Assembly: GCA_964478705.1 (NCBI GenBank)
Contig: CAYZIR010000003.1
Coordinates: forward strand, 17,223 to 81,222
Source of the DNA: an uncultured Candidatus Saccharibacteria bacterium
GTDB lineage: Bacteria; Patescibacteriota; Minisyncoccia; Phycocordibacterales; EsbW-18
Length of the DNA stretch: 64,000 nucleotides
Reading direction: 5' to 3'
Shown: positions 5,032 through 51,553 of the stretch, one piece after another
Numbering within the stretch: position 1 is the stretch's first letter
How the letters are laid out: each line of letters begins with the position of its first letter
Program-made: the position numbers and the translations under genes
The notes under the pieces: generated by a model
Told to the model about the DNA's origin: nothing
The model's database searches: none
The model's input: only the letters and a program-made list of their open reading frames with translations

Positions 5032-6474
5032 TTATTCGGGGATGAGCACACTCTGTCCTTCCACCAAACCAGCTGTAACCTCGACGAAGCCATCACTGCC
5101 ACGAAGACCCATACCTACAGTAATCCCCCTTTCTTCATCACCCTCAAGAACGGTGACGTACGCTGTACCATCTTCGCGAAAACGAAATGCACGTATAGGG
5201 AGTGCGAGGACATCGTCACGTCTATTGGTTATAATCACAACATCTGCGGTCATGCCAGATGCAATACGAGGATCTTGGTTCTCAAATGCGAGACGTGCTT
5301 CATACACCGCGATATCGTCAACTAAGGTTTCAGTGCGATTGACCGATACAACACGCGCAGGAAGCACTTCCTCTGCACCAAGTGCATCGAGTGTAATGCT
5401 TGCCAAATTACCGTTTTTGACTTTGATACTATCGATTTCCGGAAGATCAATTTCAATACCAAACCCGTCGTTTGAAATCATAGATACAACTTTAGTATTG
5501 CTTCCGACTGACTCACCGGGATCAACATCAACCGAAGTGACAACGCCGTCAAAAGGGGCTGAAAGAATCCGTTGGCTAATGAGTGCTTGGATTCGTGCAA
5601 CTTCTGCCTCAGCCTGCGCCAATTCCGCTTCCGCAATTGAAACACCAGACTCTTGGGCACGGAGTTCCGTTTGCGCCTCATCAAGAGCCCTGTCGCGTTC
5701 ACGAAGTGCATCTTGGTATGCGCTATAGTTTGTTGCGTACGAGTCTCCGTTTTTGTTTGGAATGGTGATATACCAAATCGTATTGTGGTAACTTGATGGA
5801 TCGCCAGAAAAGAGTATTGAAAGTCCGTGCGTACCAATGGCCGTCGCCCCAGTATCACGTACTCGGATTGGTTCTGGTTTTTCGAGACCGAACACATACA
5901 TATCAGTCTCTCCATTTTGCAATGCTGACTTAAGATTGATTTTGTACGTGCCTTCAATTCCCTTCGTATAACGCCCACTTACCACTGGTGGCGTTTGTGT
6001 ATAACTCGGGCTTTGAGGTTCTGCGATAAGATCATCAGAGAGAAGTTCTGAGAGTGCATTTTGAACGAGCGTATCCTGTTTTTCTTTGATTGCATCAAGA
6101 TTGATTGTCGTATTGGCGACATTCGCACGCTTGATGGCAACCTGCGCTTGTGCGGACTGAAGTTCCGCCACCAATGTCCCGAGACTCAACGATACCAATG
6201 TCTGCCCTCGGTATACCTGATCATTTACTGCAACCGCAACCTCACGGACAATACCTGACGTTTCAAACCCAACATCAGATACAATCCGTGCCTCAACCGT
6301 TCCTGAAACGCGCACTTCTTCAATGATATCTCGACGAATAACCGCAAGAGTCTCTCCTTCACCAGTGCCATTGCCACCAAAGACAATCGTGCCAATCACC
6401 ACAAGCGCCACAGCACCACTAACCATGTAGGAAAGCTTTTTATGAGCCTGTATATATGTTCGTATTCGTTGCAT
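5032..6474 (-). CDS. HlyD/MacA-family periplasmic adaptor (membrane fusion protein)
   Basis: N-terminal TM, coiled-coil (…ALDEAQTELRAQESGVSIAEAELAQAEAEVARIQ…) and beta-barrel lipoyl-like domains. Operon context with the ABC permease and ATPase. Confidence 0.85.
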   Translation of the reverse strand: MQRIRTYIQAHKKLSYMVSGAVALVVIGTIVFGGNGTGEGETLAVIRRDIIEEVRVSGTVEARIVSDVGFETSGIVREVAVAVNDQVYRGQTLVSLSLGTLVAELQSAQAQVAIKRANVANTTINLDAIKEKQDTLVQNALSELLSDDLIAEPQSPSYTQTPPVVSGRYTKGIEGTYKINLKSALQNGETDMYVFGLEKPEPIRVRDTGATAIGTHGLSILFSGDPSSYHNTIWYITIPNKNGDSYATNYSAYQDALRERDRALDEAQTELRAQESGVSIAEAELAQAEAEVARIQALISQRILSAPFDGVVTSVDVDPGESVGSNTKVVSMISNDGFGIEIDLPEIDSIKVKNGNLASITLDALGAEEVLPARVVSVNRTETLVDDIAVYEARLAFENQDPRIASGMTADVVIITNRRDDVLALPIRAFRFREDGTAYVTVLEGDEERGITVGMGLRGSDGFVEVTAGLVEGQSVLIPE

Positions 6475-8071: not shown

Positions 8072-8485
8072 CTATTTTTTCTTTCCGACCTTTTTTGATG
8101 GTGAGTTTCGTACCGCTTTCTTGACGTGCGCAGTGCCCTTTCGTGCAGAGGCTTTCGTCGAGGCAACAATCGAACGCCATGTCTTTTTCAGCTCTTCCGC
8201 AAGTGCAACAACCTCTTTTTTCGAAGATCCGTAATCCTTTGCATACTTCGCCGCAACCGCGTCAACCAAATTATTGTAGACCGGCTCACTGACATCCTTA
8301 AGTTTTTCAATTCGCTCAACGACTTCTCCTTTCATTTTGATACTCCAGCCTTTTACTTGTTTGCGGTGTTGTTTCCCTTTGGGTCCGAGAAAGTAGTATG
8401 ACGCTGCTGCAAGTGCTGCGATGCCTGCTCCGATAGCAAGTGTGTTCCCTGCTGCTGACTTTGACGATGGTTTCTTATGATTCAT
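8072..8485 (-). CDS. Hypothetical YtxH-like protein (N-terminal TM + coiled coil)
   Basis: Ala/Gly-rich N-terminal TM followed by K/E-rich helices. Confidence 0.5.
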   Translation of the reverse strand: MNHKKPSSKSAAGNTLAIGAGIAALAAASYYFLGPKGKQHRKQVKGWSIKMKGEVVERIEKLKDVSEPVYNNLVDAVAAKYAKDYGSSKKEVVALAEELKKTWRSIVASTKASARKGTAHVKKAVRNSPSKKVGKKK

Positions 8486-33836: not shown

Positions 33837-33919
33837 CGCCGAGGTGGTGGAATAGCAGACACGCAGGACTCAAAATCCTGTGCTCGCAAGAGCGTGAGGG
33901 TGCAAGTCCCTCTCTCGGC
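33837..33919 (+). tRNA. tRNA-Leu (anticodon CAA), type II with long variable arm
   Basis: GCCGAGGTGGTGGAATAGCAGACACGCAGGACTCAAAATCCTGTGCTCGCAAGAGCGTGAGGGTGCAAGTCCCTCTCTCGGCA. Close match to canonical tRNA-Leu architecture. Confidence 0.88.
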
Positions 33920-33923
33920 ACAC

Positions 33924-39188: not shown

Positions 39189-39343
39189 TTTCTATTATAA
39201 TACCGCGTCCTCCGTGACTCGGAAGTCTCAGCAACTTCCTCACAAGAGGCTCAGAATACCCTTATAAAGCTTCCATCACGGAGTACTTAACTTGAGGGAA
39301 AACAGGGTCACGCACCTTTTCCCTAACAGCTAGCACCTAGAAA

Positions 39344-39748
39344 CTAGGCACTGTGTTTCTTATACCCTCTCCACCCCAAAAACGCGAAAAGGGAATTCGC
39401 AAGGAGAATGACAACACCGACCGCAATGATTTGTGGTCGGCTCATATCGGGAAGAAGTTTTTCATACACGAACCAGAACCCGATCATGCCAGCGACGATA
39501 TCGAGAATCCAGTTTTCAAGTTCCTCCGCGATACCAAAGACCATTTCACCTATTTCCCATCCGGTGAGAATCAGGAGCACAAACGGATACGCATACATCG
39601 GATGCATACCCACCGCTGCGAGCACGCAGGCAGAGACCGCACCAGTCAGTGCATGGACAATCATCCAGAGGTCCCATATTTTCCCTTCCTGAAAACTCCA
39701 CGAAATGAAGGGGACTGGATCGGGTGCTTTAAAATTTATTTTCTTCAT
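39344..39748 (-). CDS. Hypothetical membrane protein
   Basis: Four TM helices; no motif. Confidence 0.5.
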   Translation of the reverse strand: MKKINFKAPDPVPFISWSFQEGKIWDLWMIVHALTGAVSACVLAAVGMHPMYAYPFVLLILTGWEIGEMVFGIAEELENWILDIVAGMIGFWFVYEKLLPDMSRPQIIAVGVVILLANSLFAFLGWRGYKKHSA

Positions 39749-39850
39749 ATACTTCCACGGAGCGCCTTGATTCGTTCTTCAACCGGCGGGTGCGTCACCC
39801 CGCTAGTAAAGATTCGCAGGCTCATCTTACTACGGGGCAGGTGAAAAGTT

Positions 39851-40732
39851 TCATAGACCACGTAATGCTTTTATTCTCTCCTCAACCGGCGGATGTGTCA
39901 TAAACAATTTTGAAAGACCTTTTGTGCCTGGACCGAAAGGGTTTGCGATGAAGAGATGCGCTGTTGCCTGGTGCGCGGATTTAAGTGGTGCACCGTAGGT
40001 TGCAATTTTCTCAAGTGCGGATGCTAGCCCTTCTGGATAGCGTGTGAGAAGCGCGCCAGACGCGTCCGCGAGAAATTCACGCTTTCGTGAGATTGCAAGT
40101 TGAATCAAGGTAGCTGCAATGGGCGAAAGAACTATGAGGACGATGCCGACGATTGCGAGCACACCGCCAGCTTTATTATCTCGGTCTCCCCCGCCAGAAA
40201 ACGACGACCGGAGGAAGAAATCCGCAAGTAAGCTGATGAATCCCACCAACACAACGACGACTGTGGAAAGAAGAATATCCCGATTACCAATGTGTGAGAG
40301 CTCGTGCGCAATCACACCCTCAAGCTCTGTTCGCGTGAGCCGTTCGAGCAGCCCTGTCGTGACAGCAACCGCTGCGTGTTCTTTATCTCGACCCGTTGCA
40401 AACGCGTTCGGTGCAGAATCACGGATGATGTAGAGCTTCGGCATGGGAAGTCCCGCGGTGATTGAGAGATTTTCGGTGACCGTGTAGAGATCAAAGAATT
40501 CTTCGCGTGTTGCAGGGCGGGCCTTTGAAACCGCGAGCGCGATCTTGTCAGAGAACCAGTAGCTCCAGACGTTCATGATGATGCTTATAACAATCGCAAC
40601 CGGAAGTATCCCCGGCGCATCATAGACATAGCTCAAGCTCCAGCCGACAGCAATGACTATGATGAAAAAGAGGGTCATGAGGCCCCAGGTTTTTGCAATA
40701 TTGCTGTCTTGATGGGTGTAGAGGGTGGACAT
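39851..40732 (-). CDS. htpX: Zinc metalloprotease HtpX (M48)
   Basis: HELSHIGNRD HExxH motif and four TM helices; 293 aa. Confidence 0.9.
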   Translation of the reverse strand: MSTLYTHQDSNIAKTWGLMTLFFIIVIAVGWSLSYVYDAPGILPVAIVISIIMNVWSYWFSDKIALAVSKARPATREEFFDLYTVTENLSITAGLPMPKLYIIRDSAPNAFATGRDKEHAAVAVTTGLLERLTRTELEGVIAHELSHIGNRDILLSTVVVVLVGFISLLADFFLRSSFSGGGDRDNKAGGVLAIVGIVLIVLSPIAATLIQLAISRKREFLADASGALLTRYPEGLASALEKIATYGAPLKSAHQATAHLFIANPFGPGTKGLSKLFMTHPPVEERIKALRGL

Positions 40733-40744
40733 GGACTGGGTTCA

Positions 40745-40828
40745 AGGTGCTAGGTGATAGGTTCTAGGTGCTAGGTGATAGAGACTAGGTACTAGCTTAT
40801 AGCTTTTAGGGTGTAGGGTGTAGAAGAT
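40745..40828. repeat. 12 tandem heptamers (consensus AGGTGNT) immediately upstream of htpX
   Basis: aggtgct aggtgat aggttct aggtgct aggtgat agagact aggtact agcttat agctttt agggtgt agggtgt agaagat. Related shorter arrays at 42004..42040, 51440..51470, 39325..39347 and 42965..42990. Confidence 0.7.
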
Positions 40829-41057
40829 TCAAATGCAGTGGGAATTAATGCGAGTCGTTCATGAGGTCATTGATCTGTGCACTCGCTTCTGTTGTATGAA
40901 GTGCAATCTCTTCAAGACCTTGAAACAGCTTCCAGGTAATCGATATCATCATCACAAATGCAAACACTACGAGAAGCCATATCTTGCTGACATTTGTATT
41001 ACCACGAGAGGATATCGTCGGCATAAGAATGAGGGTTTAGCCACTTGGGTATGGCCA

Positions 41058-41411
41058 CTAGGGTTGAAGCGAAGCAATAAGCTTGTTGAGCATCCGCATA
41101 ACTTCGTCAAGAATGCATTCTGCGGATTCTGTGTCTGCCCTACCTATCATACCAATTTCCTTGACTATAGTCAGATGCGTCTCGAGTTCTGCTCCTGAAC
41201 CGAAACTCACCCTTAAAAATTGAATATATTCGGCTCTGTGTTTTCGAGCATATCCTTCTGCAATATTCGCTGGGATAGAAACCACCGCGCGGTGCATTTG
41301 AGAAATTAGTCCGTATTTTTCGTCCTTCGGAAGTAAGGCAGTGAGAATATAGATTTCTTTCACCAAAGCGATACTTCGTTTCCAAACAACGAGGTCACGG
41401 TAGGTTTGCAT
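41058..41411 (-). CDS. Four-helix-bundle protein (TIGR02436, 23S-rRNA intervening-sequence protein family)
   Basis: 117 aa, …YGLISQMHRAVVSIPANIAEGYARKH…F…SFGS… hallmark. Flanked by ~21-bp inverted repeats GAGGGTTTAGCCACTAGGG at 41033..41065 and 41412..41447. Confidence 0.8.
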   Translation of the reverse strand: MQTYRDLVVWKRSIALVKEIYILTALLPKDEKYGLISQMHRAVVSIPANIAEGYARKHRAEYIQFLRVSFGSGAELETHLTIVKEIGMIGRADTESAECILDEVMRMLNKLIASLQP

Positions 41412-41445
41412 CCCTATACCCTAACCCCTAGTGGCTAAACCCTCC

Positions 41446-42003
41446 CTAAAATTGTACTTTCACTGGTTCGCGGGCTTCTGGATTCTCGTCGAGATCGAAG
41501 AAGTCGCGTTTGCCAAAGCCAAACATTCCGGCGATAAGGTTGCTCGGGAATGTTTGAACCGCGGTGTTCAAGTCGCGAACATTGCCGTTGTAGAAGCGAC
41601 GTGCTGCCTGAATTTTGTTTTCGGTGTCAGAAAGTTCGCGCTGAAGTTCGAGGAAGTTTTGGTTTGCTTTCAAGTCTGGATATGCTTCAGCAACCGCAAA
41701 GAGCGATTTCAAAGCACCCGTGAGCATATTTTCTGCTTTTGCATGATCGCCAATCGATTGTGCGCCCATCGCTGCTGCTCGTGCTTTGGTCACATTTTCA
41801 AACGCTTCGCGTTCGTGTGTCGCGTATCCCTTTACAGTCTCAATCAGGTTTGGAATCAAATCGTAGCGACGCTTCATCTGCACATCAATATCTGACCACG
41901 CTTCATCCGAACGAACTCGTAAACGGACGAAACGGTTGTAGAGCACGATGATGCCGACAATGAAAACCGCGAGGATAATGAGAAAGATAAAAAGTGGTGT
42001 CAT
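41446..42003 (-). CDS. lemA: LemA family protein
   Basis: N-terminal TM then …LIETVKGYA.HE…F..VT.AR… LemA signature. Confidence 0.85.
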   Translation of the reverse strand: MTPLFIFLIILAVFIVGIIVLYNRFVRLRVRSDEAWSDIDVQMKRRYDLIPNLIETVKGYATHEREAFENVTKARAAAMGAQSIGDHAKAENMLTGALKSLFAVAEAYPDLKANQNFLELQRELSDTENKIQAARRFYNGNVRDLNTAVQTFPSNLIAGMFGFGKRDFFDLDENPEAREPVKVQF

Positions 42004-42098
42004 GGGATAGGTTCTAGGTGATAGCTTATAGGTTCTAGAAATACAAAGTAAGTATAACAGAAAAAGAAAAGCGCCGACGAATGTCGGCGCACCAGAAA

Positions 42099-42323
42099 CT
42101 AGGCAAGAACAGAAGGCTCCGACTCATCGAAATAGCGAAGCGCCTGCTTTTGCAGATTCGCTTCAGCAAGACCGAGAAGCGAACCATCTCCGAGGTACGA
42201 GTCGTGCAAGAACCCCTGGTAGCGATCTCGGGCAACTACTTTTTCCGCCTGAGGCCTCTCGTTCTCAGAACTGATTTCAGTACCCGATTTTGGTTCCTTT
42301 TCGATCACAAGATCTCCTTTCAA
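42099..42323 (-). CDS. Small hypothetical protein (74 aa)
   Basis: ORF overlapping the end of the upstream gene by 4 nt. Confidence 0.35.
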   Translation of the reverse strand: MKGDLVIEKEPKSGTEISSENERPQAEKVVARDRYQGFLHDSYLGDGSLLGLAEANLQKQALRYFDESEPSVLA

Positions 42324-42841
42324 TCGTCTGACCAGAGGCCCTTAGAGGCGCGCCGGTTTTTACGTTGGTAGAGAGCGTCGGAAAATGTCCGTATGAAGTG
42401 AACGCATTTCCACAAGAGAGCGAAGGGGTAGAAAGTCACACCTAAAATGATCACCAAGACAGCCACCCCACCAAGCGCAAGATCGGAGATACCCGAGAGA
42501 TAGCCAGAGATGACGCCTTCGTCCCCTATCTCGAATTCTTGATCCTCCGAAGAAGTGTCCTGGACCTCGTCTGGGTCTCTCTTGAAAAGAGGTGTGCCTG
42601 CGACAGCAAAACGAGCACTCCGAACTCTTCCGTCTGGGCGACGAACCTGCCACTCGTTGCCTTGAGCAACTTCATGCCGAATAGTCTTGAACGTCTTGAA
42701 GGAGCGCAGTAAGAACTCTTTGACCGACAGCCCCTCCTTTTCAGCAAGTTTCAGGATATCCTCACCAAACTCTTGAGGCACAGAAAACTCCACACGCTTT
42801 CTTTTTCTTTTGGCCTCTTTCTCAAAATCAATCAACATCAC
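42320..42841 (-). CDS. Hypothetical protein with N-terminal ribbon-helix-helix-like region and C-terminal TM helix
   Basis: Basic N-terminus (KRKRKRVEFSVPQEFGEDILKLAEKEG…) and TM LALGGVAVLVIILGVTFYPFALLW. Confidence 0.45.
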   Translation of the reverse strand: MMLIDFEKEAKRKRKRVEFSVPQEFGEDILKLAEKEGLSVKEFLLRSFKTFKTIRHEVAQGNEWQVRRPDGRVRSARFAVAGTPLFKRDPDEVQDTSSEDQEFEIGDEGVISGYLSGISDLALGGVAVLVIILGVTFYPFALLWKCVHFIRTFSDALYQRKNRRASKGLWSDD

Positions 42842-43007
42842 CTACCTCCGAGGAGAAAAATTTGTTTTAGAACACCCGAGAAGACAATACAATTATTAAA
42901 CAAAAAAGCAAGACATCACTGCCCTGCTTTCTGTTTTTTGTTTCCCCTATCCCCCTGCCTTCCGGCAGGCAGGCTAACCCCTATAAGCTAGCACCTAGAA
43001 CCTGCTT

Positions 43008-45042: not shown

Positions 45043-45231
45043 AGCATGAGTAGTTGAAAAGTTTATAAGTTATGAAGTTTGTAAGTCTCAGAACATATCA
45101 ACTTAGAAACTTAATGAACTAATAACTAACCGAGGCTCACCTATTGTATTCACCCCGCTCGCGAGTGCAATTGACATAAATTTATAAACTTATATAGTTC
45201 TATCGGATTGTCTCTGTGAGACATCCCGACC

Positions 45232-51439: not shown

Positions 51440-51553
51440 GTAGCAGGGTGTTAGGTAAAGGGTATAAATTCTTCCTCTCAATTATTTTTGATAGGGAGAA
51501 TTTTGCTGTTTGGAGTTTCTAGTAAGTGGCGATACCCTAGAGCTATACTCTTC

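Follow-up and report, generated by a model that had tools for sequence, protein, structure and literature searches.

A 3.7-kb block at positions 39325-43000 of the 64,000-nt stretch of DNA analysed here (the whole stretch is hereafter called the window) contains six arrays of tandem 7-nt units, placed at the gene junctions of a groES-groEL-lemA-htpX cluster in a Paceibacteria bacterium of the Candidate Phyla Radiation (CPR). We give a probability of about 0.55 to the reading that these six arrays are the arms, or the duplicated or relic arms, of insertion cassettes of the intervening-sequence (IVS) type that settled in the junctions of this ancestral cluster. The canonical cassette would consist of a four-helix-bundle (4HB) gene of the PF05635/TIGR02436 family, with a G-rich array on its 5′ side and a complementary C-rich array on its 3′ side (coding strand). 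Across metagenomes, arms with a period of 7 nt are associated with 4HB genes strongly and independently of lineage, one cassette type is present in different loci, and insertion polymorphism exists (see below). Throughout the text, L and P numbers denote the comparison loci and proteins that were retrieved.

Heptamer arrays and inverted pairs in the block

A period-7 run was defined as at least three CTA or TAG triplets recurring every 7 nt. Such runs are confined to this block, none being found elsewhere in the 64 kb, and the arrays far exceed chance. On the forward strand, the TAG runs count eleven triplets at 40751-40823 and five at 42008-42038, and the CTA runs, at 39323, 41414, and 42974, count four each. 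Tandem Repeats Finder (TRF) reports arrays with periods of 7 and 21 at 40739-40823 and one with a period of 14 at 42006-42033. An earlier description of this DNA, made by inspection of its letters and open reading frames (ORFs) and called here the sequence-only reading, had counted 12 copies before htpX and 5 before lemA, and we recover the same arrays with 11–12 and 5 units, respectively. The consensus that it proposed, AGGTGNT, has to be replaced. In the htpX array, which also has a 21-nt super-period, TAG is invariant in 11 of the 11 in-phase units and the other four positions are 36–64% conserved, so that what is conserved is NNCTANN, with TAG in the complementary strand.

The same description had placed a 15-mer, AGCTAGCACCTAGAA, at both ends of the block. 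It is indeed found exactly at 39328-39342 and 42986-43000, and the match does extend into the flanks, although at 22 of 25 positions (39321-39345 vs. 42979-43003) and not the 23 of 25 given before. However, the two copies do not mark block boundaries; they are members of the repeat family, located just after the groEL and p134 stops and running opposite to the htpX and lemA arrays. AGCTAGCACCTAGAA has five matches at up to two mismatches in the window, compared with 0.09 expected, and the 15-mer also appears inverted, with one or two mismatches, inside the htpX and lemA arrays. It is simply two heptamer units common to two arrays and not a special boundary site.

All genes of the block lie on the minus strand, in the order p134, htpX, p59, the 4HB gene, lemA, p74, and p173, followed by groEL and groES (Table 1). 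Read on this gene strand, C-rich arrays stand directly before the starts of lemA, p59 (probably the old htpX start, see below), and htpX, and G-rich arrays stand directly after the stops of groEL, lemA, and p134. The rule is thus narrower than an array before every minus-strand gene start, as had been claimed, there being none before groES, groEL, p173, p74, or p134. Another array reported at 51440-51470 fails the period-7 scan, consisting of two loose units of ~14 nt with irregular TAG spacing; the gene downstream of it had been correctly recognised as an MFS transporter.

The arrays combine into inverted pairs. Pair S1 (42009-42032 / 42980-43003) is complementary at 23 of 24 positions and encloses p173 and p74. 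Pair S2 (41031-41066 / 41409-41444), 36 nt long and 75% complementary including 15 perfect base pairs, encloses the 4HB gene and corresponds to the inverted repeat of related, heptamer-like units already noticed around it. Pair S3 (39314-39346 / 40758-40790; 33 nt, 82%) encloses htpX and p134. When the 3.7-kb minus-strand RNA is folded, the structure of minimum free energy (MFE) pairs precisely these partners, with 23 bp in S1, 28 bp in S2, and 23 bp in S3. The fold of the 4HB module has a z-score of -3.9, with a predicted MFE stem that encloses the ORF, and at the 4HB start TAG occurs four times at period 7, ending at the ATG.

The units of S1 and S3 are of the types ACCTAGN/AGCTAxx and those of the 4HB arms of the types CCCTAxx/GGCTAxx. 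S1b makes up essentially the entire putative 5′ untranslated region of lemA, and S2b is homologous to the htpX leader of two relatives, L058 and L046. These C-rich leaders are G-poor and weakly folded, the predicted folding energy of the htpX leader being -8.5 kcal/mol in the sense vs. -21.0 kcal/mol in the antisense orientation. The whole block is 100% identical in three independent assemblies (SRR16481183, SRR16481186, and SRR16481187).

Some simple explanations of the arrays were tried and discarded. A G-quadruplex role, for which at least four GGG tracts were required, does not fit, as most units carry GG only (TAGGTGN in the main arrays) and GGG runs are limited to the 4HB 5′ arm and to 40807-40823. 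Pairing of the Shine-Dalgarno (SD)/anti-SD kind was rejected as well, AGGTGAT being SD-like but on the wrong strand, in a lineage without SD enrichment. An insulator providing stops in three frames (TAG every 7 nt) would suit the window but is not general, because arms of 4HB cassettes elsewhere are often stop-free and translated in-frame.

Table 1. Arrays, genes, and other features of the block, with positions in the window except where a comparison locus is named.
Feature	Position	Strand	Basis
S1a, G-rich array (TAG every 7 nt as read along the genes), ~5 units, starts directly behind the groEL stop, holds one 15-mer	42972..43003	-	
S1b, C-rich array (CTA every 7 nt), 5 units, ends 4 nt before the lemA ATG	42004..42040	-	
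S2a, 5′ arm of the 4HB cassette, G-rich, located after the lemA stop and before the 4HB ATG	41409..41444	-	
S2b, C-rich 3′ arm of the 4HB cassette, overlaps the 4HB stop, ends 6 nt before the p59 ATG	41031..41066	-	
S3a, C-rich array (CTA), 12 units, ends 12–18 nt before the htpX ATG	40745..40828	-	
S3b, G-rich array (TAG), 4 units, first TAG is the p134 stop codon, holds the other 15-mer	39321..39348	-	
Terminator-like hairpin between S1a and p173	42903..42932	-	Consensus match only
p173, orphan, ribbon-helix-helix (RHH)-like N-terminus and C-terminal transmembrane (TM) helix	42320..42841	-	Weak RHH evidence
p74, orphan ORF, TTG start, overlaps the p173 stop, coding status uncertain	42099..42323	-	No family matches
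Terminator-like hairpin (GCGCCGACATTCGTCGGCGC and T-run), then extended -10-like TGTTATACT upstream of lemA	42071..42090	-	Motif scan
lemA, adjoins htpX in relatives too	41446..42003	-	Pfam LemA, 7.9e-64
4HB gene, 23S rRNA intervening-sequence protein family, Avd-like	41058..41411	-	PF05635, TIGR02436, 2GSC
p59, probably what is left of the 5′ end of an older htpX	40845..41024	-	BLASTP
htpX (M48 peptidase)	39851..40732	-	Pfam, 1.3e-33
Remnant of a second htpX 3′ end	39755..39797	-	Direct repeat, 77% nt identity
p134, small membrane-like protein, no family assigned	39344..39748	-	Domain searches
4HB genes within methyltransferase ORFs (approximate)	L091 1345-1707; L097 2995-3357; L101 3001-3378; L110 70-429; L123 3001-3357		

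Heptamer arms and 4HB genes in metagenomes and relatives

Homologues of the window 4HB protein (43–66% identical) were collected from 80 metagenomic loci, with analysable subsets of 47–50. The best lag-7 identity has a mean of 0.70 in the 90 nt upstream and 0.60 in the 90 nt downstream of these ORFs, compared with 0.35–0.47 at other lags. A strongly periodic flank was found for 34 of 47 4HB ORFs (72%) and for ~10% of the other genes on the same contigs, the difference in flank periodicity between 4HB and control genes being marked on both sides (Mann-Whitney p = 2e-16 upstream and 3e-7 downstream). Tandem heptamers stand directly upstream of the ORF start in 58% of 50 homologues. The two arms differ in composition on the coding strand, with 38% G in the G-rich upstream one and 33% C in the C-rich downstream one, and they are complementary to each other in 31 of 48 loci. 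The units themselves are diverse (GGCAGTA, GGGTATA, GGGCAAC, GGGTTCG, and others), and 27 of 29 start with GG. Close homologues of the window 4HB gene carry the same arm type (TAGCCAC/TAGGGTA) at the lemA-htpX junction, at rpsP-KH-trmD, and in one further context.

In L091, L097, L101, L110, and L123 the whole 4HB cassette, with both arms, lies inside an ORF for an Eco57I-like N6-adenine methyltransferase, with GVYYTP..IV and ILDPACGSG as the motifs on either side. No stop interrupts the host frame along the cassette in any of the five cases, compared with an average of 3.5 stops in that frame for 46 other 4HB ORFs. Uninterrupted methyltransferase homologues (61–74% identity) have 10–25 residues where the inserted ones carry ~165, and P0003, P0004, P0009, P0021, and P0095 lack the insertions of L097 and L101, providing empty sites for these related loci (not for the window itself). 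ORF-less in-frame hairpins made of a G-arm and a C-arm are found in the same large restriction-modification proteins of L101 (3534-3632) and L123 (2115-2198, 2280-2363, and 2736-2819), where they are translated as Gly-rich and then Pro-rich linkers; those of L123 measure 84 nt each, which equals 12 heptamers or 28 codons. The methyltransferase cases are examples of a gene within a gene, in another frame. A stop-free +2 frame is also seen in the 4HB ORFs of L121 (2995-3360), L106, and L144, the last two located at the nuoC/nuoD junction, and a downstream DEAH-helicase-like motif in L121 (DLIICDEAHRTTG) suggests another in-ORF insertion.

The neighbourhood of the block was compared with that of HtpX homologues from 80 species-representative genomes (61–72% identity, all of them Patescibacteria/Paceibacteria). 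In these 80 loci there are 17 runs of at least four CTA and 8 runs of at least four TAG at period 7, with one at most for each of the other periods, and 33 of 40 arrays (at least three units) are intergenic, in loci where intergenic DNA makes up ~18% of the total. Sense CTA arrays end 4–5 nt before the ATG of htpX in 8 genomes and of lemA in 4–5; they also precede a few other genes, mostly encoding N-terminal TM proteins. Arrays in TAG orientation start on a stop codon or directly behind one, 7 of 15 being in phase with the stop. The bases flanking the core of the unit vary between genomes, and arrays at htpX and lemA occur without p173. Most htpX and lemA genes of the relatives have no array, and at the lemA-htpX junction array length goes from 0 to 12 units across species.

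This junction holds a 4HB gene with inverted arms in L046, L058, L062, and L084 too, giving five genomes with the gene and most without it, and ORF-less hairpins with the same arm type occupy it in L006 and L068. L062 has arrays at nearly all cluster junctions, including an intact hairpin that runs from stop codon through TAG-array, loop, and CTA-array to ATG. Overall, 13 of 35 CTA arrays in the relatives have an inverted partner within 3 kb. In L027 a perfectly complementary 21-nt pair (5687-5717 / 8367-8395) extends from the groES-groEL gap to just before lemA, with groEL and ~1 kb inside, so that arm pairs can enclose core genes and not only inserted ones. An RNase III homologue was found in the relative L025. 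Arrays with other units are also present in these genomes: ATCAGAC ten times plus a short inverted copy upstream of the groES promoter (L017, 3683-3750), eight perfect CTAGAAC units before a small ORF (L066, 19813-19871), AATTTTC arrays as an inverted pair (L014, 16452-16562), and GATTTAA and TCATAAA arrays upstream of the lemA -10 element (L074, 9254-9366).

Gene content and surroundings of the block

The 4HB family comprises thousands of small genes and is related to Avd, a protein of diversity-generating retroelements. The window member scores E = 1.2e-34 against PF05635 and E = 8e-33 against TIGR02436, its best match to a solved structure being PDB 2GSC (E = 2.7e-20). On its downstream side, p59 aligns with HtpX residues 1–33 (30% identity, 67% positives, E = 5e-6 in BLASTP), and after the htpX stop the stretch 39755-39797 encodes THPPVEERIKALRGS, vs. 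THPPVEERIKALRGL in htpX, thus repeating the last 14 HtpX residues with other codons. Taken together, p59 and the recoded HtpX C-terminus indicate that the region was rearranged around an older htpX copy, and the present htpX with its 12-unit array seems to have been inserted into, or recombined with, that earlier copy. A weak homologue of p134 is located after htpX in L058.

Searches of 5.8 billion and 1.8 billion proteins for homologues of p173 returned p173 itself only, and profile and domain searches gave neither homologues nor family matches for p74. The RHH-like character assigned to p173 by the sequence-only reading is partly borne out by Arc-like signals, namely an Arc-like PHROG match, a Foldseek top list consisting mostly of Arc/CopG/AtaR, and an AlphaFold2 model with a beta-alpha-alpha N-terminus and a long C-terminal helix; the support is weak, however, with E = 0.025 for the PHROG match, E > 1 for every Foldseek match, and a low-confidence fold (pLDDT 65–77 for the N-terminus). 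The p173 start has a strong GGAGG 5 nt 5′ of its ATG (42838-42860), as do few other genes of this genome. SD-like motifs lie upstream of 7 of 68 genes in the window and 101 of 1143 overall, compared with a background of 7–8%, and the lineage does not use SD sites. The presence of this GGAGG in an SD-less genome, together with the lack of any homologue, suggests that p173 and p74 are a recently acquired pair of foreign genes. TATAAT-like elements are found in relatives at the same distance from lemA as TGTTATACT.

The order groES-groEL-lemA-htpX is present in about half of the 80 relative loci, where usually little or nothing separates the lemA stop from the htpX ATG (spacer of 0–10 nt), and this order is the ancestral synteny. 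The additions peculiar to the window are p173 and p74 between groEL and lemA, and the 4HB gene, p59, and the 12-unit array between lemA and htpX. Pfam and domain searches found no integrase, transposase, or recombinase domain in the block, and an Rfam scan of the window at gathering thresholds returned three tRNAs only, with nothing in the block and no rRNA. Upstream of groES, an inverted repeat on AAGTTTATAA / TTATAAACTT (45059-45080 / 45178-45199) flanks a promoter-like region (TTGACA/TATAGT or TTGCAC..TACAAT); it is a candidate for the true heat-shock operator in this lineage, and no match to the CIRCE element was found in the window at up to three mismatches. At some distance from the block, tRNA-Leu(CAA) (33838-33921) is followed directly by a 226-aa ORF (to ~34604) with a faint LAGLIDADG_3 annotation (Logan record); a group I intron was considered here and rejected, as no Rfam intron model matched at E ≤ 1.

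Origin of the arrays and comparison with known systems

If the arrays are cassette arms, a 4HB cassette would have lodged after lemA and before the start of the old htpX, a second, near-identical arm pair would enclose the two foreign-looking orphan genes between groEL and lemA, and a third one htpX and p134. In the minus-strand RNA the arms may pair into long stems that RNase III would cut, as in the Coxiella IVS (see below), and the insert would in this way be removed from the host transcript or insulated inside it. A G-poor, unstructured leader would be provided by the C-rich arm beside the downstream start, in an organism without SD sites; because these arms are G-poor and weakly structured, they could double as SD-less leaders. 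The periodicity would most likely derive from slippage of 7-nt units, of which the CTA/TAG core alone is kept. Such an origin accounts for arrays flush against stop and start codons, for complementary pairs enclosing added genes, and for the htpX and lemA junctions being hit repeatedly in relatives.

There are several points that weigh against it. The relative loci were chosen around htpX, and the gene-association statistics derived from them carry an ascertainment bias; moreover, 22 of the 35 CTA arrays in the relatives are solo, with no inverted partner within 3 kb. The terminator-like hairpins and the -10-like element lie inside pair S1, whose arms may therefore never share one RNA. The derivation of S1 and S3 from a 4HB cassette would have to bridge the different unit types of their arms, and the stem model alone does not explain the strict invariance of CTA/TAG. 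At the window arrays, arm pairing and RNase III processing are predictions by analogy with the Coxiella IVS. Finally, among the arm mismatches of the metagenomic 4HB loci there are 25 G-U and 19 A-C, a non-significant difference that gives no sign of RNA-specific selection on the stems, so that arm complementarity could be a property of the DNA.

The closest known system is the 23S IVS of Coxiella burnetii, in which an S23p ORF of the PF05635 family is preceded by GACAGAT heptamers, two or three by strain, with three directly before the ATG (PMC4990558); the first of these heptamers is where RNase III cleaves (Warrier et al., 2016, PMC4990558). The window element shares with it the protein family, the position of the ORF in the loop of a stem with inverted termini, and the tandem heptamers directly 5′ of the start, and a further likeness is that the Coxiella IVS is regarded as a selfish, horizontally moving element. 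Unlike it, the window element is located between lemA and the htpX remnant and not in helix 25 or 45 of the 23S rRNA, its arms are longer heptamer arrays on both sides, and additional pairs enclose genes other than 4HB. Rickettsia palindromic elements (RPE), repetitive extragenic palindromes (REP) and the mosaic elements built from them (BIME), and insertions of the miniature inverted-repeat transposable element (MITE) type are also small inverted-repeat insertions, found between genes or in-frame inside ORFs. The present elements resemble them in their small size, in their location in operon spacers and in-frame, and in their ORF-less copies (L101, L123), but the arms here are tandem heptamers and not a unique palindrome, and a form carrying a 4HB ORF exists. 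We know of no RAYT (REP-associated tyrosine transposase) or other transposase for heptamer-armed elements.

The arrays themselves recall the GGGAATC repeats of Xanthomonas and the GGGGAYT repeats of Nostoc (short tandemly repeated repetitive sequences, STRR), 7-nt units that typically come in sets of ~4 and strongly favour non-coding DNA (Rehm et al., 2015, PMC4692102). There, the G-rich strand coincides with the coding strand when the array follows a stop and is antisense when the array precedes an ORF, and convergent inverted pairs are frequent, one of them between groES and groEL (PMC4692102). Four GGGAATC copies, 6 nt after bccP, overlap the start of XCC0516 (PMC4692102 supplement), which is the pentameric 4HB protein of PDB 2GSC. 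Unit length, non-coding bias, strand rule, inverted pairs, and adjacency to a 4HB gene (XCC0516) are therefore common to both; however, the Xanthomonas and Nostoc repeats are near-perfect copies of a single unit, genome-wide, and G-quadruplex-competent, whereas those of the window are degenerate around CTA/TAG and clustered in 3.7 kb of 64 kb. That study drew no link between heptamer repeats and 4HB genes (PMC4692102), and in our literature search for a stated connection between PF05635/S23p and heptamer arrays the Coxiella case was the only one. The TAACTGA repeats of Beggiatoaceae, cyanobacteria, and Bacteroidetes are forward repeats a few nt from starts, where they replace a recognisable ribosome-binding site (MacGregor, 2015, PMC4679880). 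Like the window arrays, they abut starts and sometimes overlap the upstream stop; unlike them, they consist of a single conserved heptamer, with inverted pairs rare and no associated gene identified (PMC4679880). More tentatively, and at well below even odds, heptanucleotide arrays in general (STRR-like, GGGAATC, and CTA heptamers) might belong, as termini and footprints, to a single widespread family of small mobile elements. Its autonomous form would encode a pentameric Avd-like PF05635 protein that recognises the arms, perhaps with one heptamer unit per 4HB subunit, and promotes propagation or processing. Such a family would have rRNA (the classical IVS), operon spacers (the window), and in-frame positions within genes as its sites of insertion, and would leave behind ORF-less hairpins and solo arrays.

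Among the explanations that dispense with a cassette, a neutral one, although unlikely, ranks first. The arrays would be heptanucleotide simple sequence repeats (SSR), generated because replication slippage favours 7-nt units and surviving in non-coding DNA, with no function and no real tie to 4HB genes, and their orientation would be sorted by selection against structured or G-rich leaders. It is in keeping with this that the long SSRs of many prokaryotes most often have heptanucleotide units (Mrazek, 2007, as summarised in PMC4679880), that many other heptamer types exist in the intergenic DNA of the relatives, that the lemA-htpX array varies so widely in length between species, and that L066 has 8 perfect CTAGAAC units. 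Nevertheless, uniform decay would not leave TAG intact in all 11 units with 36–64% conservation elsewhere, the S1 arms are co-linear inverted copies (23/24), the association with 4HB genes is specific when compared with control genes on the same contigs, and the arm type travels with a 4HB clade into different loci. A less probable, indeed rather improbable, explanation is that CUA-heptamer tracts serve primarily as SD-independent leaders for translation initiation, or that an RNA-binding protein (S1, Csp, or a HutP/TRAP-like oligomer) binds them and so regulates membrane-stress genes jointly. The association with 4HB genes and the copies in TAG orientation would then be incidental. The close approach of sense arrays to the ATG of htpX, lemA, and other N-terminal-TM proteins, in a lineage without SD sites and with G-poor, weakly folded leaders, speaks for this, and HutP binds three UAG triplets spaced by 4 nt. 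The same proposal has been made for the TAACTGA repeats of Beggiatoaceae (PMC4679880). But abutment on the ATG is expected anyway for an insertion into the 0-10-nt lemA/htpX spacer, the units have very different sequences in different genomes, half of the arrays have the opposite orientation and follow stops, and most htpX and lemA genes of the relatives do without an array.

The interpretations offered by the sequence-only reading fare worse. A shared stress regulator acting on operator arrays is very unlikely; by analogy with the omega repressor of pSM19035, an RHH protein that binds contiguous 7-bp iterons in direct and inverted orientation (heptad WATCACW), p173 would coat the heptads cooperatively and control htpX and lemA under heat or envelope stress. 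The window arrays do resemble the omega operators in their contiguous 7-bp units, both direct and inverted, with units such as TATCACC close to WATCACW and a gene with a weak RHH signature lying between two arrays. Yet they are located downstream of the -10-like TGTTATACT or after stops, with an orientation that depends on the coding strand, and the candidate regulator is an orphan, whereas arrays with differing units mark the same genes in relatives without p173. Furthermore, groES has no array, there is no CIRCE element in the window, and it is a different inverted repeat that flanks the groES promoter. We find it extremely improbable that the arrays are contingency loci whose copy-number changes switch or tune htpX and lemA expression. 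The Coxiella heptamers before the S23p ORF do vary (2 vs. 3) between strains, and array length differs between species, but non-identical units are poor slippage substrates, the arrays lie outside coding frames, and copy number is the same in the three assemblies, which come from different runs. Hardly any more credible is a mobile 3.7-kb stress-gene island with the 15-bp direct repeats as attachment (att)-like boundaries. The exact 15-mer at both ends is what invites it; against it, the 15-mer is two units of a repeat family that is also present inverted within the block, the block has no integrase or transposase, and lemA and htpX inside together with groEL outside belong to a synteny conserved across Paceibacteria. 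Because of this synteny the 3.7-kb block is not a cassette or island, and the 15-bp repeats do not delimit its presence or absence in relatives; what survives of the recombination-cassette idea are the smaller inverted pairs around inserted genes.

The feature is best read as combining an IVS-type element outside rRNA with heptameric intergenic repeats, both of known kinds. The earlier observation of the arrays was largely correct and the interpretations offered for it mostly were not, and the interesting part is the broader association of heptamers with 4HB genes. It joins two loose ends, the 4HB family on the one hand and the origin and role of heptamer arrays at bacterial gene boundaries on the other, since heptamer arms and 4HB genes travel together across unrelated lineages, in different operons, as in-frame insertions with empty sites, and as ORF-less derivatives. 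For the annotation of CPR genomes, such arrays would be element arms or relics and not promoters or operators, and the conserved chaperonin/lemA/htpX cluster appears to tolerate repeated small insertions at its gene junctions.

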